In this document: positions 5,268-64,000 of the stretch, one piece after another
Layout of the letters: each line of letters opens with the position of its first letter
How positions within the stretch are numbered: position 1 is the stretch's first letter
Source of the DNA: Pseudomonas sp.
GTDB taxonomy: Bacteria; Pseudomonadota; Gammaproteobacteria; Pseudomonadales; Pseudomonadaceae
Direction: 5' to 3'
Length of the DNA: 64,000 nt
NCBI GenBank assembly: GCA_033852045.1
Contig: JAWSVF010000008.1
Coordinates: 77,390-141,389 of the forward strand
Translations under genes and position numbers: made by a program
The notes under the pieces: model-generated
The model's database searches: none
What the model was told of the DNA's origin: nothing
The model's input: the letters and a program-made list of their open reading frames with translations, nothing else

Positions 5268-6119
5268 TTACTTCGCGGCCTTGCCCAAGGCAATCTGATA
5301 AAGACGGTTTTTCTTCTGTCCGGTTATCCTGGCAGCCAGCGCCGAGGCCTGCTTTACCGGCAATTCCTCGAGCAGCAAATCGAGCACCCGTTCGGCTTCA
5401 GGATCCAGCCCCTCGTCCTCATTGCGTGGTGGCATCGCTTCAACCACCAGCACGCACTCTCCACGCTGCTGATCGCTATCGGCCCGCACCCACTCGACCA
5501 GCTCGGAAATGGGCGCACCCCGGATGGTCTCGAAGGTCTTGGTCAATTCCCTGGCCAGCACAACCTGTCGCTGCGGCCCAAGGATATCCAGCATATCTTC
5601 CAGGCACTCGAGCAACCGATGCGGCGCTTCGTAAAGCATCCAGGTTCGAGGCTCGCTGGACAAAGCCTGCAGACGCTGACGACGACCGCTGGCTTTTGCC
5701 GGAAGGAACCCTTCGAATGCAAAGCGGTCAGAAGGCAGACCTGCGGCACTCAGCGCCGCGACCAGAGCACAGGGCCCAGGTACGGGACAAACCCGCACAC
5801 CGGCTTCCCGAGCGGCACGGACAAGATGGTAGCCGGGATCGGAAATCAACGGTGTACCTGCGTCCGAGATCAGCGCCATATCTTCACCGGCGAGCATGCG
5901 CTCTACCAGCCTGGCGCTCTTGTCGCGCTCGTTATGGTCATGGCAGGCCGTAGTGGGTGTCGAAATACCGAAATGTTGGAGCAGGCGGCCGCTGTGACGG
6001 GTATCCTCTGCAGCAATAAGTCCGACGTTAGCAAGCACCTCCAGCGCCCGCGGAGTCATGTCCTGAAGGTTGCCGATGGGGGTGGCAACAATGAAAAGCG
6101 TACCGGTAGATGTGGCCAT
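5268..6119 (-). CDS. rsmI: 16S rRNA (cytidine1402-2'-O)-methyltransferase RsmI
   Basis: The 283 aa ORF has tetrapyrrole-methylase-fold motifs ([42 protein letters not shown]). It is divergent from lpoA as in E. coli and Pseudomonas. Confidence 0.9.
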
Positions 6120-6270
6120 GACAAATCTCGATCAAGGTGTGGTCACTATTGTACAGGACGTGATCCAGTACATGGCGCGAGCCCTGCCCCTTGGTTACAA
6201 TGCTGCAGATAACTTCTGCAAGAAATCCAACGGGACACATCACGTGTCCCTTGCGTAAGGATACCGCTGC

Positions 6271-8090
6271 ATGCCCTGCAATAAACGCCTGCCAATACTG
6301 TCGTTGGCACTCGCCGTGCTGCTTGTCGGCTGCGCCAGTCCACCCCAGAGTCTCAGCGAGCTTCCGCGCACGCCACAGGCATCCGCAGAAAAAATACTCG
6401 CCGATGCAGACAAGTATTCCGGGGCTGAAGCCAATCTATTGCGTCTTTACGCGGCGCAGGCAGCAAGCGACGCTGACCGGCCGGAGCAGGTCCTGTCGAT
6501 TCTCCAGCGTGTACCGCAAAGCGAACTGCCACTGGATCAGCAGGTACGGTTCAGCACACTCCAGGCCCGAAGCGCCCTTGCGCTAAAAAGACCGGAAATG
6601 GCGCTGCGTGCCCTGAGGCACCCCTCCATGAGCCAGATCGATAGCCTGCCGCTGACCGATCAGGTCGCAATCCAGCGCCTGCGCGTGTTGGCCTTGGGTG
6701 CTACCGGGGAGCCTCTTAAAGCCGCCCGTGAGCGTGTATTCATGCATGGTGTCCTATCCGGCGGTGAGCGTAACGCGAACCTTTTGGCTATCTGGGACAA
6801 CCTGCAGCAAGTGCCAACAGCGGAGCTTACAAAAGCAGCAGAGAGTGCCGACGGCGAGCTGCGCAGCTGGATTGAGCTGGCTCTGATCCAACGGGAATTT
6901 CGTAATATCGATCTACAGGTGCAGGCAATCAAGGCATGGAGAGAGCAGAACAGCGCCCATCCCGCCGCACAACCACTCCCGGACTCCATTCAGCAGTTGC
7001 TGGAGCTACACGCCAGCCGCCCCCAGCACATAGCCCTGTTATTGCCCTTCGAAGGGCCACTGGCCAGCGCTGCAGAAGCACTGCGCGATGGCTTCCTGGC
7101 CGCCCAATACCAGGCTCAGAGCAAGGGGCTGGATCAACCCCGAGTCAGCCTGTATGACAGTACCGCCTACGCCAACCTTGATCAGTTCTATGCCCAGGCC
7201 GTCGCTGACGGCGTCGAGTGGGTGATCGGCCCGCTGGATCGCGAGCGCGTGGGTCGCCTAGCAACGCGCAGTTCTCTGCCAATACCCACCCTGGCCCTGA
7301 ACTATGCAGAGCGAGAAGGTCCCTATCCACAGGGCCTGTTTCAGTTCGGCCTGGCACCCGAGGACGAAGCTCGCTCAGCAGCCATGCAGGCCTGGGAGCA
7401 GGGTCATCGGCAGATGGGCGCACTGCACACAACTACTGACTGGGGTGTTCGGGCCTATGAGTCGTTCCGACGTACTTGGGAAGAAATGGGCGGCGTTCTG
7501 GTAGGTCGCGTGGTGATTGACCAGCCGGCAGAGATTTCTGGCCAGATTGCCGATCTGTTGCAGATACGTCAGAGCGAACAGCGAGGACAGCGTGTTTCCA
7601 GAGCGCTCGACGGCAACGTTGTGGTCCAACCTACACCGCGCCAGGATCTTGATGCCCTGTTTATCGCCGTCAATCCTCAACAGGCCCGCCAGATCAAACC
7701 TACCCTGGCATTCCAGTACGCTGCTGACCTGCCGGTCTTCGCAACCTCCCACGTATACCAGGTGGGTCTTGATGGACAGCAAAATACCGATATGGATGGC
7801 ATAGTGGTTGCCGAGATCCCATGGCTACTGACCCGTGAAGATGCACTTTACAGTCAGGTCACCAACAATTGGCCCCAAGCCCAGGGTCCGCTGGGTCGCC
7901 TGTATGCCATGGGCATCGATGCTCAACGCATTTTTTCGCGCCTGCCACAGATGCAGCAATTTTCCAGCACCCGAGTTGATGGCGCCACGGGCGAGCTCAC
8001 CTTGTCCCCCGATGGTCGCATCCAACGCCAGCTAAGCTGGGGAGTAATGGAGCGCGGACAACTATCTGCCACCTCCTCCGTCCGGGTGCA

Positions 8091-54518: not shown

Positions 54519-54605
54519 GCCTCGATGGCGGAATTGGTAGACGCGGCGGATTCAAAATCCGTTTCTGGTGACAGAGTGGGAGTTCGATTCTCCCTCGAGG
54601 CACCA
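54519..54605 (+). tRNA. tRNA-Leu (anticodon CAA)
   Basis: - 87 nt cloverleaf folded by eye.
- Acceptor stem GCCTCGA/TCGAGGC.
- D-arm GGAATTGGTAGA.
- Anticodon loop TTCAAAA.
- Long variable arm.
- T-arm GGGAG-TTCGATT-CTCCC.
- Encoded CCA. Confidence 0.9.
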
Positions 54606-60568: not shown

Positions 60569-60928
60569 ATGAGCGTACTTGCAGATTTAACTGCACGCCT
60601 CGGGCTACTAGACGAACCCCAGCCCGCGCCAGTGACAACAGCGCTAGCAAAACCGAACGAAAGTGCTGCGAATGAAAGCATCGCACCCGATACCCTAAAG
60701 CAGAGCATTGAGCCATTGGGGTATACGCTGACAGCCGCCACCGCGTCACCTGAATGGCGACAGGCCAGAGACCTGTATCTTCAGCACCTAATGACATGCC
60801 GCGCCTGTCACGCGCCTACGAATCGCTACTGCAAGAGTGGTACGAACCTGCGTCAACATTACGACAACACCTCCATGCTGCCGCCTCTTCAGAGCAGTAT
60901 GGAAGAGTCTCTGGCGGACAACCTATGA
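60569..60928 (+). CDS. Hypothetical protein (119 aa)
   Basis: The ORF has an AGGAA Shine-Dalgarno-like sequence 7 nt upstream. It has a Cys pair (CRAC ... YC). No family was recognised. Confidence 0.45.
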   Translation: MSVLADLTARLGLLDEPQPAPVTTALAKPNESAANESIAPDTLKQSIEPLGYTLTAATASPEWRQARDLYLQHLMTCRACHAPTNRYCKSGTNLRQHYDNTSMLPPLQSSMEESLADNL

Positions 60929-61031
60929 ATACCGCGCATGCACATTTATCGACATTGCTATTCTAAAATGGACGGCCGAGATCACGGCCATCAGCGAAGA
61001 GGCTGGCTACACAAAAAGGAGATGTTTTGCC

Positions 61032-61214
61032 ATGCGAACGATCAAACAACAACGGGACAGCCTGCACATGTCGCTGGCGGCCAACAGGCTATTCGAGCAG
61101 GGGATGACACTCGATCAGGTAAACGAGTATCTGGCGACGACGCCGATTGAGGAAATGATCAAGGCTAACGTCGAGCACCTGGAGCGCAAGCACAATACAT
61201 ATGAGGAGGAGTAG
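61032..61214 (+). CDS. Hypothetical small protein (60 aa)
   Basis: This internal ATG of the 125 aa ORF has a good Shine-Dalgarno sequence (AAAGGAG). The product is helical and acidic. The 5' part of the longer ORF overlaps the previous gene. Confidence 0.35.
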   Translation: MRTIKQQRDSLHMSLAANRLFEQGMTLDQVNEYLATTPIEEMIKANVEHLERKHNTYEEE

Positions 61215-61274
61215 CCGCGATTGAGCTAACCAGTGGGCACGAACCTAGAGTCACGCCACCGGATAAGTGTCTTG

Positions 61275-61463
61275 CTACTTTTCGGGATCGATCTCCTTAC
61301 GACCTTCATGTGTGCGGATGAATATAATGCGGTCGTCAGGGCCATAGGTGACGAGCACGCGAGGGGGCGGGATCGGCTCATCTCGTCTGAACAGTGCCCG
61401 AACCCTGTAAGGAACGGCGTTACGAAGCAGGGAGCAGATACGGCTAAAACTGGATACGCTCAT
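61275..61463 (-). CDS. Hypothetical 62 aa ORF; C-terminal half weakly resembles a RelE/ParE toxin core (possible remnant)
   Basis: PRVLVTYGPDDRIIFIRTHEGRKEI resembles the YRLVYQV.D..V.V..V..R.E.Y core of RelE-like toxins. The ORF is about 30 aa too short and has no adjacent antitoxin ORF. Confidence 0.25.
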   Translation of the reverse strand: MSVSSFSRICSLLRNAVPYRVRALFRRDEPIPPPRVLVTYGPDDRIIFIRTHEGRKEIDPEK

Positions 61464-61547
61464 CGGATGGCGAGACCTTTATAGTAGATAGTAAACTAAC
61501 GTCTGATCATGACTTTTCGATTCTCGAGAGCATAGGGGCAACAGTCA

Positions 61548-61754
61548 ATGTCGAACCATACCAAGACACCGAAACCCGAACATGAAAAGCCGAAGCTCAG
61601 CCTGCAGTCGGGCGATCGACTCTGCGAGATCTTTTCCGACAACTCACAGCTCGTCACCGTCGACGGGGTACCAGTAGAGAAACGGGATCCGAGGTCTGTC
61701 TACTCAGTTCTAGAGTCTACCGGCCGCTCGCGGAAGGTGAGCCCAATTAACTGA
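61548..61754 (+). CDS. Hypothetical protein (68 aa)
   Basis: An ORF only, with a weak Shine-Dalgarno sequence. It is divergent from the 62 aa ORF. Confidence 0.3.
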   Translation: MSNHTKTPKPEHEKPKLSLQSGDRLCEIFSDNSQLVTVDGVPVEKRDPRSVYSVLESTGRSRKVSPIN

Positions 61755-61808: not shown

Positions 61809-62294
61809 TCACTCTTCCTCTTGCTCGTGATCGTCGTCCTCTCCATCACGATGAGCCGCGAACAAGTCGAACCCCACCCAAATGGTTCGACTGACTGGCC
61901 CGCAGCCCATCCCGCGGGTCGTCAGCTCATAGATCAACGGAACCTCTCCCAGCTCCTCTACATGATCCGCGAGAATGTCGAAATCATCGTTGAACTCGGC
62001 ATCCCGACCAGCGGCTTCAAGCTCGTTGCGTTTTTGCTCAATGACCGCTTCAAGACTCGGATGTATGTAATCGAACTCACCGATTCCATCGATATAGATA
62101 AATCTGAGGGTCGGGACGTCGTCCCATTCCTCCTCCAGATCGTAGTCCGCGTTCGGTCCGCGGCTACCACCATATCCCGATAGAACGACGACACCTGTGA
62201 TCGGACAATGCAAAGCTGGCGGAACCTGACCAAATGGCCAATCGATATTGACGACAGCCCGTTCAAACGTCGGCGACCCGAGCTTTGGAATCAT
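61809..62294 (-). CDS. Hypothetical soluble, strongly acidic protein (161 aa)
   Basis: The ATG at 62294 is preceded by AGAGGAGG. The product is rich in D/E with the tail DGEDDDHEQEEE. The upstream 53 codons of the 214 aa ORF look non-coding. Confidence 0.6.
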   Translation of the reverse strand: MIPKLGSPTFERAVVNIDWPFGQVPPALHCPITGVVVLSGYGGSRGPNADYDLEEEWDDVPTLRFIYIDGIGEFDYIHPSLEAVIEQKRNELEAAGRDAEFNDDFDILADHVEELGEVPLIYELTTRGMGCGPVSRTIWVGFDLFAAHRDGEDDDHEQEEE

Positions 62295-62449
62295 TAAGTT
62301 ACCTCCTCTTGTAGTTTTTAGAAGGATAATATTCGAGGGCATTACCATCCAAGAGTGCACAAGAGAATGGCAAATCTGACATATCAATGTGCGCTCTCCC
62401 GCGCCGCGCCACCTTGAGCGCCTCAGCGGTTGCTGAAATACCGAACGAC

Positions 62450-63436
62450 TCACTCTCTCAGCAAAACGATGGGCTCATAGTTGATGCTGCTCATTGTTTC
62501 AAGAAAGACCGGACCAGGGATCTCGCGCTCGGCAAGGTGATCCAGAAGATATGGTCTGGATAAAGCAACGTCGCTTGCCTCGCGTAACTCTGCAGCTATA
62601 GCTTTAGCCTTTCGACGAGAGGTGCGATAACCGTTGAATTCCTCTTCAGAGTTTGCGAAATCGGTGGGCATGATTTTAGCTGCCAACATGTTGGTACCAA
62701 TCGGATCAAACAGGCTGCAATAGGTCTCGGAGATTTCTATCGCTGAATGGCGGGCTGCATTCATCTCGTCTGCTTTGAGCAGGCACTGAATACGTGCCGC
62801 ATTAGCCATCAGCAAGGCGGAGGTGAGCATCTCTAACAAGTCGGCGTTAAAGGTCTGCTCGTCCAGAAGCGCTCTGATCTCAGCTCGGAAGAACCCGGCT
62901 TCCAAAGCCAAAGCCTCCTCTGTGGTCAACCAGGCGCGCCCAGCATTGCTTCGGTGGGGTATCTGATCAGTCCGCTCCAACAAAACACCTACCCGAGCTA
63001 AATGTTCGCGCAGTCGCTCTTCTTGAGCTTTAGCGAAATGCATATCCATTTGCCTAGACAGGCCTGAAATGGAGTTTTCGATCCCTTTTAAACGCCTGGT
63101 CACAAGCACGAAGCCCACCACACTCACGCCGAGCCCCGCTGCGGCCACTCCCAAGCTTGTGAATCCCAGCAGTTGGAGTCCGCCAACCATAGCTTTGATC
63201 TGGGCAAGCTGAGCACTCGCATACGCCGACGACGCGAGGTTAGTAACGTTGAATGGCGAAAACGGAGTCATATTGGCGGCCGAGACGAGATGCTGTGCCA
63301 GCCCTGTCTCCTGGACGTGAGCGACTATTCGCCCTGACGACACATCTTTTAAGAGTGTGCCAATACGCACTATGCTGCCGTTTGCCAGGCCGCCTGCGAA
63401 TTCAGTTGGGATGCTGAAAGGTATGTTATGCAGCAT
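62450..63436 (-). CDS. Hypothetical membrane protein (328 aa; about 80 aa N-domain, central hydrophobic segment, about 215 aa helical C-domain)
   Basis: The hydrophobic stretch is MVGGLQLLGFTSLGVAAAGLGVSVVGFVLV. The start overlaps the upstream gene by 11 nt. No family was recognised. Confidence 0.65.
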   Translation of the reverse strand: MLHNIPFSIPTEFAGGLANGSIVRIGTLLKDVSSGRIVAHVQETGLAQHLVSAANMTPFSPFNVTNLASSAYASAQLAQIKAMVGGLQLLGFTSLGVAAAGLGVSVVGFVLVTRRLKGIENSISGLSRQMDMHFAKAQEERLREHLARVGVLLERTDQIPHRSNAGRAWLTTEEALALEAGFFRAEIRALLDEQTFNADLLEMLTSALLMANAARIQCLLKADEMNAARHSAIEISETYCSLFDPIGTNMLAAKIMPTDFANSEEEFNGYRTSRRKAKAIAAELREASDVALSRPYLLDHLAEREIPGPVFLETMSSINYEPIVLLRE

Positions 63437-64000
63437 GAGGCAATTCCTTTAACATCCTACCGGCGGTGTCTTCAATCAGTCCCTGGAGCACCTGATTGAG
63501 CGAGGTCCCGTCAGGATTGAACAGCACCTTTTGTCTGCTCTGAACGACAAGGTGCTCTCGCAAGTCCAGTTGCGCGTTGCTTTTGATCTTTTTCAAGCGG
63601 GCTCGCGCAAAGAAGCCAGTCGCAGCAACAACCCCCACTCCGATTATTACGGCCGGAGCTGAAACGACTGTCGTCGTCACGCCGAGTAATCCTAATACGC
63701 CCCCAACAGACGCTGTGGTGGTGGAAGCGCCTATCGCAATCGGAACGGCGGCGACTGCCGCGCCCGTAGACATCGTCGCACCGGAGATGTCCAGAAGCTT
63801 ACGCTTGACCGGGGAGCCCGCGAGGTTGCTCTGCATCTCATTAACAGGAATGGTCTGCTCGCAGATACCAACAAGGTCGGTTTGAGCCTGCCTTGTAAGC
63901 AGCAATCTCTGCTCGGATATCCAGCGCATCAGGATGGGGTTGAGCGTCTTCTCGATGAACCTATCGGTCAGAACGACGTTTGAAACGTTCATCTGGCCAA
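63426..64000 (-). CDS. Hypothetical 2-TM protein, possibly the C-terminal part of a larger protein (reading frame open to the window edge)
   Basis: - Two Gly/Ala/Val-rich hydrophobic helices (AAVAAVPIAIGAS..SVGGVLGLLGV and VVSAPAVIIGVGVVAATGFFA).
- An ATG at 63992, but no stop and no Shine-Dalgarno sequence in the 8 nt remaining upstream, so the true start may lie outside the window. Confidence 0.55.
   Translation of the reverse strand, partial: GQMNVSNVVLTDRFIEKTLNPILMRWISEQRLLLTRQAQTDLVGICEQTIPVNEMQSNLAGSPVKRKLLDISGATMSTGAAVAAVPIAIGASTTTASVGGVLGLLGVTTTVVSAPAVIIGVGVVAATGFFARARLKKIKSNAQLDLREHLVVQSRQKVLFNPDGTSLNQVLQGLIEDTAGRMLKELPHAA

Follow-up and report, generated by a model that had tools for sequence, protein, structure and literature searches.

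A mobile two-gene membrane cassette pairing a remote JukB relative with a putative dynamin-trunk-like partner on a Pseudomonas tRNA-Leu island

Juk is a two-component system of Pseudomonas aeruginosa PA14 that acts against jumbo phages, and its effector, JukB, forms tetrameric pores (10.1101/2022.09.17.508391; PMC13282480; PMC13434031). Two other described systems bear on the locus analysed here: Eleos (LeoA/LeoBC), a dynamin-like defence system in whose LeoABC form LeoC constitutes the N-terminal GTPase fragment (Michie et al., PMC4159319), and the 2TM-1TM-TIR system (Rst_2TM_1TM_TIR) of the P2-like phage AC1 (Rousset et al. 2022, PMC9122126). We analysed three minus-strand genes at the end of a 64,000-nucleotide stretch of Pseudomonas sp. 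DNA (the window): gene 1, which runs from 63426 to beyond the window edge at 64000, gene 2 (62450-63436; 328 aa) and gene 3 (61809-62294; 161 aa). A sequence-only reading had described the three as a module in the cargo of a tRNA-Leu island. The features that it listed, namely the coordinates, the overlap of genes 1 and 2, the gap before gene 3, the transmembrane (TM) segments and the acidic nature of gene 3, are all present. Its second statement, that the genes belong to no assignable family, is correct for Pfam, NCBIfam and PHROGs, where none of the three gave a usable family match, and needs amending for gene 2, which appears to be a remote relative of JukB.

A conserved gene pair on a tRNA-Leu island

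The island is integrated at a tRNA-Leu(CAA) gene located at 54519-54605 of the plus strand, as indicated by the tRNA call and an end repeat: the 3' end of the tRNA (54583-54599) recurs 17.7 kb away, beyond the window, at positions 1185-1201 of the extended contig (L001). The integrase and replication genes of the island occupy the plus strand. For comparison with P4-like and PICI-like phage satellites, its recognised genes encode an integrase, AlpA and a DUF927 primase-helicase. A type I restriction-modification (R-M) system adjoins genes 1 and 2, and the proposed cargo location is borne out. The three genes under study are real rather than chance open reading frames, because they have homologues elsewhere: genes 1 and 2 at more than 100 loci, where both are full length, and gene 3 in a sister island.

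Genes 1 and 2 overlap by 11 nt, from which the sequence-only reading had suggested translational coupling. The arrangement is kept widely. An open reading frame resembling gene 1 ends at the start of gene 2 in 91 of the 106 loci with enough upstream DNA, mostly with overlaps of 4, 8 or 11 nt, and most of the remaining loci carry a TM-less upstream frame with the same N-terminal WRD motif. The hosts span several phyla and include Pseudomonas, Azomonas, Methylomonas, Rhodocyclaceae, Desulfobacteraceae, Lysobacterales and Rhodobacterales; the pair also occurs on a contig from a metagenome-assembled genome labelled Draconibacterium. Furthermore, the pairwise protein distances of gene 1 track those of gene 2 (r = 0.90; reached in 0 of 5000 Mantel permutations). 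No conserved third gene accompanies the pair, the biggest cluster of downstream genes covering only 4 of 85 loci.

Comparison with the sister island, about 88% identical to ours, demonstrates that the pair is mobile. It lies within an insertion or deletion of at most 2,039 bp, corresponding to L001 9073-11111, a segment with no counterpart in the sister island (blastn of L035/L034 against L001). The downstream end of the inserted segment maps to 62326-62449 on the minus strand, and its right junction with the island backbone falls near 62326, so that 32 nt separate it from the downstream ATG of gene 3. Promoter and terminator scans around the cassette returned sites no commoner than expected by chance. 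Genes 1 and 2 thus form a translationally coupled, conserved and mobile two-gene membrane cassette.

Gene 3 begins 155 nt beyond gene 2. Its ATG is preceded at 8 nt by AGGAGG, and its product is strongly acidic (pI 4.15; 36 D/E against 10 K/R). In the sister island (L034/L035) a homologue about 88-89% identical at the DNA level directly follows hsdR, and genes 1 and 2 are absent. Gene 3 is otherwise confined to this island family: a single 90%-identity cluster mate was found, no relatives were detected in plasmids, phages or metagenome contigs, and the gene is missing from the more than 100 other loci that carry the pair. Because gene 3 lacks co-conservation with the pair and stands without it in the sister island, it is an island-backbone gene outside the gene 1-gene 2 module. 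Co-occurrence across islands therefore upholds the association of genes 1 and 2, and not the three-gene unit that had been proposed.

Gene 2 and its likeness to JukB

Gene 2, a presumed pore-forming effector, belongs to a family of 1306 clusters at 50% identity that has no Pfam entry. Its product opens with a beta-rich domain (63287-63436; residues 1-50), which family alignments reveal as the best-conserved part of the protein, with P10, G20, G26, G35 and Q42 invariant. A Gly-rich hydrophobic segment follows (63098-63178; residues about 87-113) in which G101, G103 and G108 are conserved, making it a candidate TM or pore-lining helix. The remainder is an all-helical C-terminal domain (62477-63034; residues about 135-320), predicted by AF2 with a pLDDT of 75-91, for which Foldseek found no significant structural match in the PDB.

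The PADLOC model of JukB (PDLC04114) recognised gene 2 at E 1.7e-6. Likewise, it matched 47 of 53 members of the gene 2 family, with a best E of 7.6e-17, colinearly over the N-terminal domain and the TM segment. Matches to the solved JukB structure (9jht) were fainter. One family profile (A4) gave a weak colinear match at E 0.015, in which the hydrophobic segment of gene 2 aligns with residues 98-163 of 9jht; profiles A1 and A6, the latter built on the N-terminal domain only, did not find 9jht among PDB sequences. The hits of the family profiles to PDB sequences were mainly coiled-coil noise, and a single-sequence PDB search with P0186 found nothing. Comparing the gene 2 model with 9jht by Foldseek placed it at rank 10, without significance (E 0.47; TM-score 0.31-0.36). 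We interpret gene 2 as a distant relative of JukB, a placement that draws mainly on the PADLOC model; the link to the JukB of PA14 itself is weak.

Gene 1 and its possible likeness to a dynamin trunk

Within the window the minus-strand frame of gene 1 is open from its stop at 63426 to base 64000, and this had raised the possibility that it is the tail of a larger protein. Extending the contig settles the point: the start lies 45 codons past the window edge, at the equivalent of window position 64127 (L001:9310-10011), so that the window holds the C-terminal 191 codons of a complete, stand-alone protein of 233 aa. Another possibility, that a separate gene upstream terminates in the ATGA at 63989-63992, was considered and dropped, since that TGA belongs to another frame and the alignment of homologues favours the 233-aa start.

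The N-terminal helix of gene 1 carries the conserved WRD motif (W16, R17), of which W16 is invariant in the family alignment. Further along lies a hydrophobic helical hairpin rich in Gly, Ala and Thr (63606-63782; residues about 116-174 of 233), with P129 invariant and G149 nearly so, and its two hydrophobic helices are followed by about 60 residues to the C-terminus. The hairpin may serve as a membrane paddle or as a 2-TM anchor; some divergent members of the family, a minority, lack it.

A bacterial dynamin-like paddle had been suggested for this region, and the PADLOC library lends weight to the suggestion. Ten of 21 gene 1 family members match positions 342-567 of the 601-position LeoBC model, with a best E of 1e-10, and 11 have no match; gene 1 itself is marginal at E 0.0035, and all of these scores may be inflated by hydrophobic, low-complexity segments. 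The matched part corresponds to the trunk and membrane-binding region of LeoB, which rules out a LeoC-like identity for gene 1 (PMC4159319). Neither a dynamin-type GTPase domain nor a match to Dynamin_N or any other Pfam family was found in gene 1, and its profile retrieved only TM noise from PDB sequences.

We turned to an AF2 model of a gene 1 homologue with 64% identity, which shows two long N-terminal helices at good confidence and, between them and two C-terminal helices, a poorly predicted hairpin. Its best natural Foldseek matches in the PDB were the stalks of Mx, SynDLP and Drp1, all at E > 0.1. For genes 1 and 2 alike, Foldseek returned nothing at E 0.001 or better from models whose membrane regions are poorly resolved (pLDDT < 50). 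Judged from the PADLOC matches, gene 1 resembles the part of a bacterial dynamin-like protein that comprises the helical trunk and the hydrophobic paddle, with the GTPase absent.

We also asked whether gene 1 could be JukA. The PADLOC JukA models matched E. coli YaaW, the positive control, at 1e-57 and none of the 21 gene 1 family members, and hhalign gave a probability of 0.1% for a relationship between the gene 1 family and YaaW. The identity with JukA was rejected.

Genomic contexts, possible functions and relation to known systems

Defence and mobility genes accompany the pair at a number of loci. Besides its place near the R-M system on the tRNA-Leu island, the pair lies within a BREX cluster, between brxC and pglX, and another locus (L066) also has pglX downstream. 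Elsewhere the pair occurs with Zorya I and a WYL regulator, or with BrxR and a dynamin-like pair beside an integrase, and in Azomonas a WYL-WCX regulator is directly upstream. Toxin genes (HicA, ParE) are near the pair at some loci, and integrases, transposases and primases at further ones; several copies reside among housekeeping genes (L006, L013-L015). Taken as a list of contexts, these surroundings are best read as pointing to defence, and the role proposed by the sequence-only reading remains the likely one for genes 1 and 2.

On balance, then, the two genes probably form an autonomous, horizontally mobile and so far undescribed anti-phage system that is membrane based. Gene 1 would sit in or on the inner membrane by its hairpin and hold or position gene 2. 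A phage-induced cue would release or recruit gene 2; candidates are deformation of the membrane where the phage injects, a membrane compartment of the phage and a protein that it encodes. Gene 2 would then oligomerise by way of its Gly-rich helix and form a pore. The pore might open in a phage-associated membrane, in which case the cell would survive as it does with Juk, or in the cell membrane, resulting in abortive infection. A broader proposal, which we put forward tentatively, is that the roughly 1,300 clusters at 50% identity, spread over several phyla, represent a widespread, unrecognised form of two-component membrane immunity in which the sensing of membrane events induced by phage, and the deployment of a JukB-like pore former, would fall to a GTPase-less dynamin trunk/paddle protein and not to JukA.

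The main competitor holds that the pair has no anti-phage role and is instead a membrane module, either for repair and remodelling under envelope stress or as a toxin-antidote or exclusion device that stabilises mobile elements. Toxin-antitoxin and holin-antiholin systems also include overlapping pairs of small membrane proteins, and some bacterial dynamins and PspA-like systems serve in membrane repair or remodelling during envelope stress. Both products of the cassette are membrane-associated and helical, weak holin-type matches were seen in library scans, and the housekeeping surroundings of several pair loci fit such a role. Dynamin-like proteins have housekeeping membrane functions, and LeoABC was first tied to vesicle release (PMC4159319). 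Against this, the pair is patchy and horizontally transferred, it is found inside BREX and beside R-M, Zorya and WYL regulators, and its sole detectable library relatives are two defence proteins. We regard a non-defence module as rather unlikely.

Less probable still, and in our view doubtful, is that gene 2 works as a conventional JukB effector recruited by a JukA/YaaW protein encoded elsewhere in the chromosome, with gene 1 as an accessory membrane anchor or chaperone. In some genomes jukA and jukB do occupy separate locations (10.1101/2022.09.17.508391), a review places JukA in about 20% of Gram-negative genomes (PMC13282480/PMC13434031), and the JukB-like character of gene 2 agrees with the idea. 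However, a search by phmmer and tblastn, of limited sensitivity since E. coli YaaW was its only query, found no YaaW-like frame within about 6 kb at 114 loci or in the window. Moreover, gene 1 occupies the upstream, translationally coupled slot that JukA has in jukAB. The pair also enters unrelated hosts as a self-contained, tightly co-diverging cassette, which suggests that genes 1 and 2 suffice for each other. Finally, a three-gene system of 2TM, 1TM and acidic proteins, varying on that of AC1 (PMC9122126), is very improbable: the genes are close together on one strand, a strong Shine-Dalgarno sequence precedes gene 3 and the 2TM + 1TM likeness is there superficially, but no third gene is ever conserved beside the pair, gene 3 follows hsdR in the sister island on its own, it has no TIR, other Pfam or PADLOC match, and a tblastn search of 50,697 phage records (AC1 perhaps not among them) with gene 2 as query retrieved no relative.

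If the membrane defence reading is right and the cassette functional, the catalogue of defence systems gains a sizeable family that Pfam and NCBIfam do not cover and to which PADLOC assigns no system, together with a second way of studying how JukB-like pores find the right membrane. It would further suggest that the half of bacterial dynamins that binds membranes has been put to new use with the GTPase left out. Should the two-component proposal also be true, JukB-type effectors would be a modular pore-forming toolkit combined with unrelated sensors, and dynamin-derived membrane modules would be able to act as GTPase-independent infection sensors. Ready-made constructs and controls exist in the natural insertion/deletion between the L001 and L034/L035 islands and in the BREX-embedded copies.

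The cassette was also set beside the described systems. For Bunzi (BnzA/BnzB), weak PADLOC BnzA matches fall on the hairpin of gene 1 and of one homologue (E 0.01 to 1e-4). They cover a hydrophobic stretch of only some 90 residues in a model of 544 aa, reach E < 0.01 in only 1 of 21 family members and are probably a compositional effect. With the 2TM-1TM-TIR system of AC1, compared by description, it has in common that a 2-TM and a 1-TM protein travel together as mobile-element cargo, and it differs in that the TIR protein is absent here and at related loci, where no Pfam TIR occurs among the annotated neighbours of the pair at the loci examined.

Eleos may be akin to the cassette through gene 1. 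Matching members of the gene 1 family align colinearly with the C-terminal third of LeoBC, comprising the middle or trunk helices, the hydrophobic membrane-binding region and GED-like helices, and the AF2 model, in which a hydrophobic hairpin of low confidence separates the two long N-terminal helices from a C-terminal pair, may recall Eleos, BDLP1 and LeoABC (PMC4159319). In contrast to Eleos, gene 1 has no GTPase domain, neck or LeoA-like partner and measures 233 aa against about 600 aa, and its individual matches are weak.

With Juk the cassette shares several features: an operon of two genes, the first for a partner of about 235 aa and the second for an effector of about 330 aa, a fit of gene 2 to the JukB model over the N-terminal domain and hydrophobic segment at nearly equal length (328 against 335 aa), and WYL regulators and R-M systems nearby, as reported for jukA loci. 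The differences are that gene 2 matches PA14 JukB itself marginally, that its C-terminal helical domain has diverged past detection, and that the partner is a protein other than JukA/YaaW. In present descriptions of Juk the sensor, JukA, is conserved and the effectors vary; the cassette would turn this round by joining an effector of the JukB type to another partner.

Gene layout and the surrounding island

Three minus-strand ORFs lie near the end of the window, at the positions given by the sequence-only reading. Gene 3 (61809-62294, 161 aa) has AGGAGG 8 nt before its ATG and is separated by 155 nt from gene 2 (62450-63436, 328 aa), which overlaps gene 1 by 11 nt. The stop of gene 1 is at 63426, and from there its reading frame stays open as far as base 64000. 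We obtained the contig extended past the window edge (L001) by exact look-up of gene 2; there gene 1 starts 45 codons past the edge and is complete at 233 aa. Homologues keep these N-terminal 45 residues, in which W16 is invariant and R17 nearly so (the WRD motif). Thus, gene 1 stands alone and is not the tail of a larger protein, as had been considered.

The 5' side of gene 1 in L001 holds a 730-bp spacer and then a complete type I restriction-modification (R-M) system (hsdM, hsdS, hsdR). A 17-bp direct repeat, TTCGATTCTCCCTCGAG, corresponding to the tRNA-Leu 3' end, is found at window 54583-54599 (L001 18838-18854) and again at L001 1185-1201. The two copies bound an integrative island of 17.7 kb, flanked by tRNA-Leu/queA-tgt on one side and a DUF3015 gene on the other; the island's cargo is the R-M system and genes 1, 2 and 3. 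Beyond tRNA-Leu(CAA) (54519-54605) come the integrase (54846/54861-56066) and replication genes, all on the plus strand.

A sister island (L034/L035), about 88% identical in DNA to the window's, has an intact hsdR 3' end directly followed, 126 nt on, by a gene 3 homologue (L034:373-870; L035:1003-1500), and lacks genes 1 and 2. By blastn, 2,039 bp of L001 (9073-11111) have no counterpart in the sister island, where 90 bp stand instead. The segment holds genes 1 and 2 with 237 bp of upstream and 124 bp of downstream sequence; its right junction falls at about window 62326, leaving 32 nt before the gene 3 ATG. Likewise, among loci with gene 2 relatives gene 3 was seen in this island family only, and no gene 3 relatives were found in plasmids, phages or metagenome contigs. 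Since the sister island has gene 3 without the pair, genes 1 and 2 are, by sequence comparison, a self-contained cassette and gene 3 is part of the island backbone. The three-gene module proposed earlier thus loses its third member, which is not co-conserved. The gene 3 product is acidic (pI 4.15; 36 D/E vs 10 K/R), and a putative DNA-mimic, anti-restriction or R-M-related role is conceivable. Several small ORFs that separate gene 3 from the DUF927 primase (window 60569-61754; 119, 60, 62 and 68 aa in L001) are kept in the sister island, and none was assigned to a family.

The stretch from the complete hsdR to gene 1 contains a 3' remnant of a second hsdR (L001:8609-9072, window-equivalent 64365-64828), which shares 86% identity with the intact end of this gene in L035. 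This indicates that the R-M cargo was exchanged through recombination, with the remnant as the presumed scar. Tandem repeats of about 10 nt, TTGCGTA(A/C), are confined to this island family: upstream of gene 1 and outside the window (L001:9153-9190), upstream of gene 3 in the sister island (L035:916-950), and as a degenerate copy at about window 62345-62365. They probably serve as a promoter or operator of the island, with the cassette seemingly inserted into or next to this repeat site.

Relatives of the gene 1 and gene 2 proteins

Neither protein matched Pfam, NCBIfam or PHROGs. Gene 2 residues 33-147 match positions 42-151 of 323 in PDLC04114, the PADLOC-DB model of the pore effector JukB (E 1.7e-6). 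This model was matched by 47 of 53 gene 2 family representatives (best E 7.6e-17), with colinear alignments spanning the N-terminal beta-rich domain, the Gly-rich hydrophobic helix and the start of the helical domain; the homologue P0240, for instance, aligns over residues 9-166 to 8-161 (E 3.9e-15). A broad family profile placed positions 93-158 on 98-163 of JukB 9jht_A (335 aa), again colinear but at E 0.015 amid coiled-coil noise, and a profile of the N-domain alone did not find 9jht. The AF2 model of gene 2 (pLDDT 63.6) reaches confidence only over residues 135-320, the C-terminal helical domain, and Foldseek ranked 9jht tenth with it, at a non-significant score. From these alignments gene 2 is a predicted remote member of the JukB superfamily, which it resembles in length and domain order; its match to PA14 JukB itself is marginal.

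PADLOC models of JukA (YaaW), the Juk sensor, matched 0 of 21 gene 1 family members, whereas E. coli YaaW scored 1e-57, and hhalign gave a probability of 0.1%; gene 1 was rejected as a JukA. Positions 342-567 of 601 in the LeoBC model, from the dynamin-like defence system Eleos, were matched by 10 of the 21 (best E 1e-10; gene 1 itself, E 0.0035), and the membrane-paddle architecture suggested earlier appears right in kind. The matched part of LeoB carries a predicted membrane-binding domain, which lies between middle domain and GED (Michie et al., PMC4159319), and it corresponds to the trunk and paddle of bacterial dynamin-like proteins. In an AF2 model of P0043, 64% identical to gene 1, a hydrophobic hairpin of low confidence follows two long helices and precedes two more. 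Foldseek found nothing significant with it, the best natural matches being MxB and MxA stalks, SynDLP and Drp1. Given the LeoBC matches, helix layout and Foldseek ranking, gene 1 is best described as a putative GTPase-less dynamin trunk/paddle-like protein.

Pairing and neighbourhoods across loci

Word-indexed searches for gene 2 homologues yielded 42 and then 110 clusters. An exhaustive profile search found 1,306 (clustered at 50% identity) with E <=1e-3, 283 of them with E <=1e-30. Nearly all of the best 150 of the 1,306 are 310-350 aa long and align over their full length. Contexts came from exact look-ups, GTDB genomes (16 loci), IMG/VR (3 loci) and metagenomes (79 loci). At least 700 nt of upstream sequence was available for 106 of the 114 loci that carry a gene 2 relative, and in 91 of these 106 (86%) the start of gene 2 meets the end of an ORF matched by a gene 1 HMM, mostly with overlaps of 4, 8 or 11 nt. 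Pairwise divergences of the two proteins correlate at r = 0.90 over 20 distinct loci (Mantel, 0 of 5,000 permutations as high). No conserved downstream gene was detected; the largest downstream-ORF cluster covered 4 of 85 loci, and one cluster was PglX of BREX.

Most of the 15 loci without a gene 1 HMM match have an upstream ORF of 220-240 aa with the WRD motif and no hydrophobic hairpin, as in L008 (L008:7294-8004). Such divergent, TM-less clades keeping the WRD helix comprise L008; L083-L086 and L095; L026 and L113-L115; and L025, L027 and L108. Some carry an N-terminal extension of about 75 aa in place of the hairpin. The existence of these variants suggests that the conserved N-terminal WRD helix, not the hairpin, may be the core of the partnership. 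A Methylococcaceae contig has a second, weakly gene-1-like ORF convergent to the pair (L017:3297-4172, minus strand, 291 aa, E 5e-6). In P0123 (L024:5635-6984, 449 aa), a gene 2 homologue, 120 aa bearing two hydrophobic helices are added in frame at the N terminus; this extension may be the partner's hairpin fused to the protein, or may come from a start over-called in high-GC DNA.

On the window's integrative island, the cassette adjoins type I R-M. The cassette of P. shahriarae (P0014; L003-5, at L003:7310-9008) lies inside type 1 BREX, with brxC on one side and pglX on the other, and L066 has a pglX homologue immediately downstream (about 6001-7005), BREX-like as judged from that side. Other neighbours are Zorya type I with a WYL-WCX regulator (L028); a WYL-WCX regulator directly upstream (L016, Azomonas agilis); HicA and ParE toxin genes near queA, a neighbour shared with the window's island (L031); flanking IS66 transposases on both sides (L019); integrases, transposases or primases (L008, L010, L023, L032, L033); and housekeeping genes (L006, L013-L015). 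L029 has an integrase, BrxR and a dynamin-like pair. The Pseudomonas islands of L029 and L012 each carry, a few kb away from the cassette, a pair of large ORFs (L029:8544-12358; L012:7137-11182); one ORF of the L029 pair has a weak Dynamin_N match, which makes this pair a possible Eleos-like system. According to the Juk preprint (10.1101/2022.09.17.508391), jukA has WYL regulators and R-M systems as its commonest defence neighbours, and both also adjoin the gene 1-gene 2 cassette, a likeness seen in individual loci.

Proposed function of the pair

Together the analyses show that genes 1 and 2 encode translationally coupled, co-diverging, horizontally mobile, membrane-associated proteins, whose detectable relatives are limited to components of two defence systems. 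We lean modestly towards a genuine two-gene defence cassette, and we infer all of its functions. Gene 2 would be a pore-forming effector. Gene 1 would take the operon slot of JukA, anchor or restrain gene 2 at the membrane and couple it to a phage-induced cue. The candidates for this cue are a phage protein, a membrane compartment of the phage and deformation of the membrane during injection. The outcome would be abortive infection or destruction of a phage compartment. That the pair is instead a non-defence membrane module, or one for element maintenance, we hold to be unlikely; that JukA acts in trans, with gene 1 as an accessory and not the sensor, is more doubtful still; and the original three-gene model, contradicted by the comparative data, is scarcely credible.

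The gene 2 family is a large one that lacks annotation, and the architecture is unexpected. PADLOC v2 would assign the pair to no system, and a literature search, sparse in subscription journals, found no paper on a JukB-like protein with a dynamin-trunk-like partner. In Juk, which acts against jumbo phages, the JukA sensor recognises the phiKZ protein gp241 and recruits JukB, whose tetrameric pores permeabilise the early phage infection vesicle (10.1101/2022.09.17.508391; reviews PMC13282480, PMC13434031). The pair is likewise a putative Juk-like two-component membrane system, but its partner protein differs.
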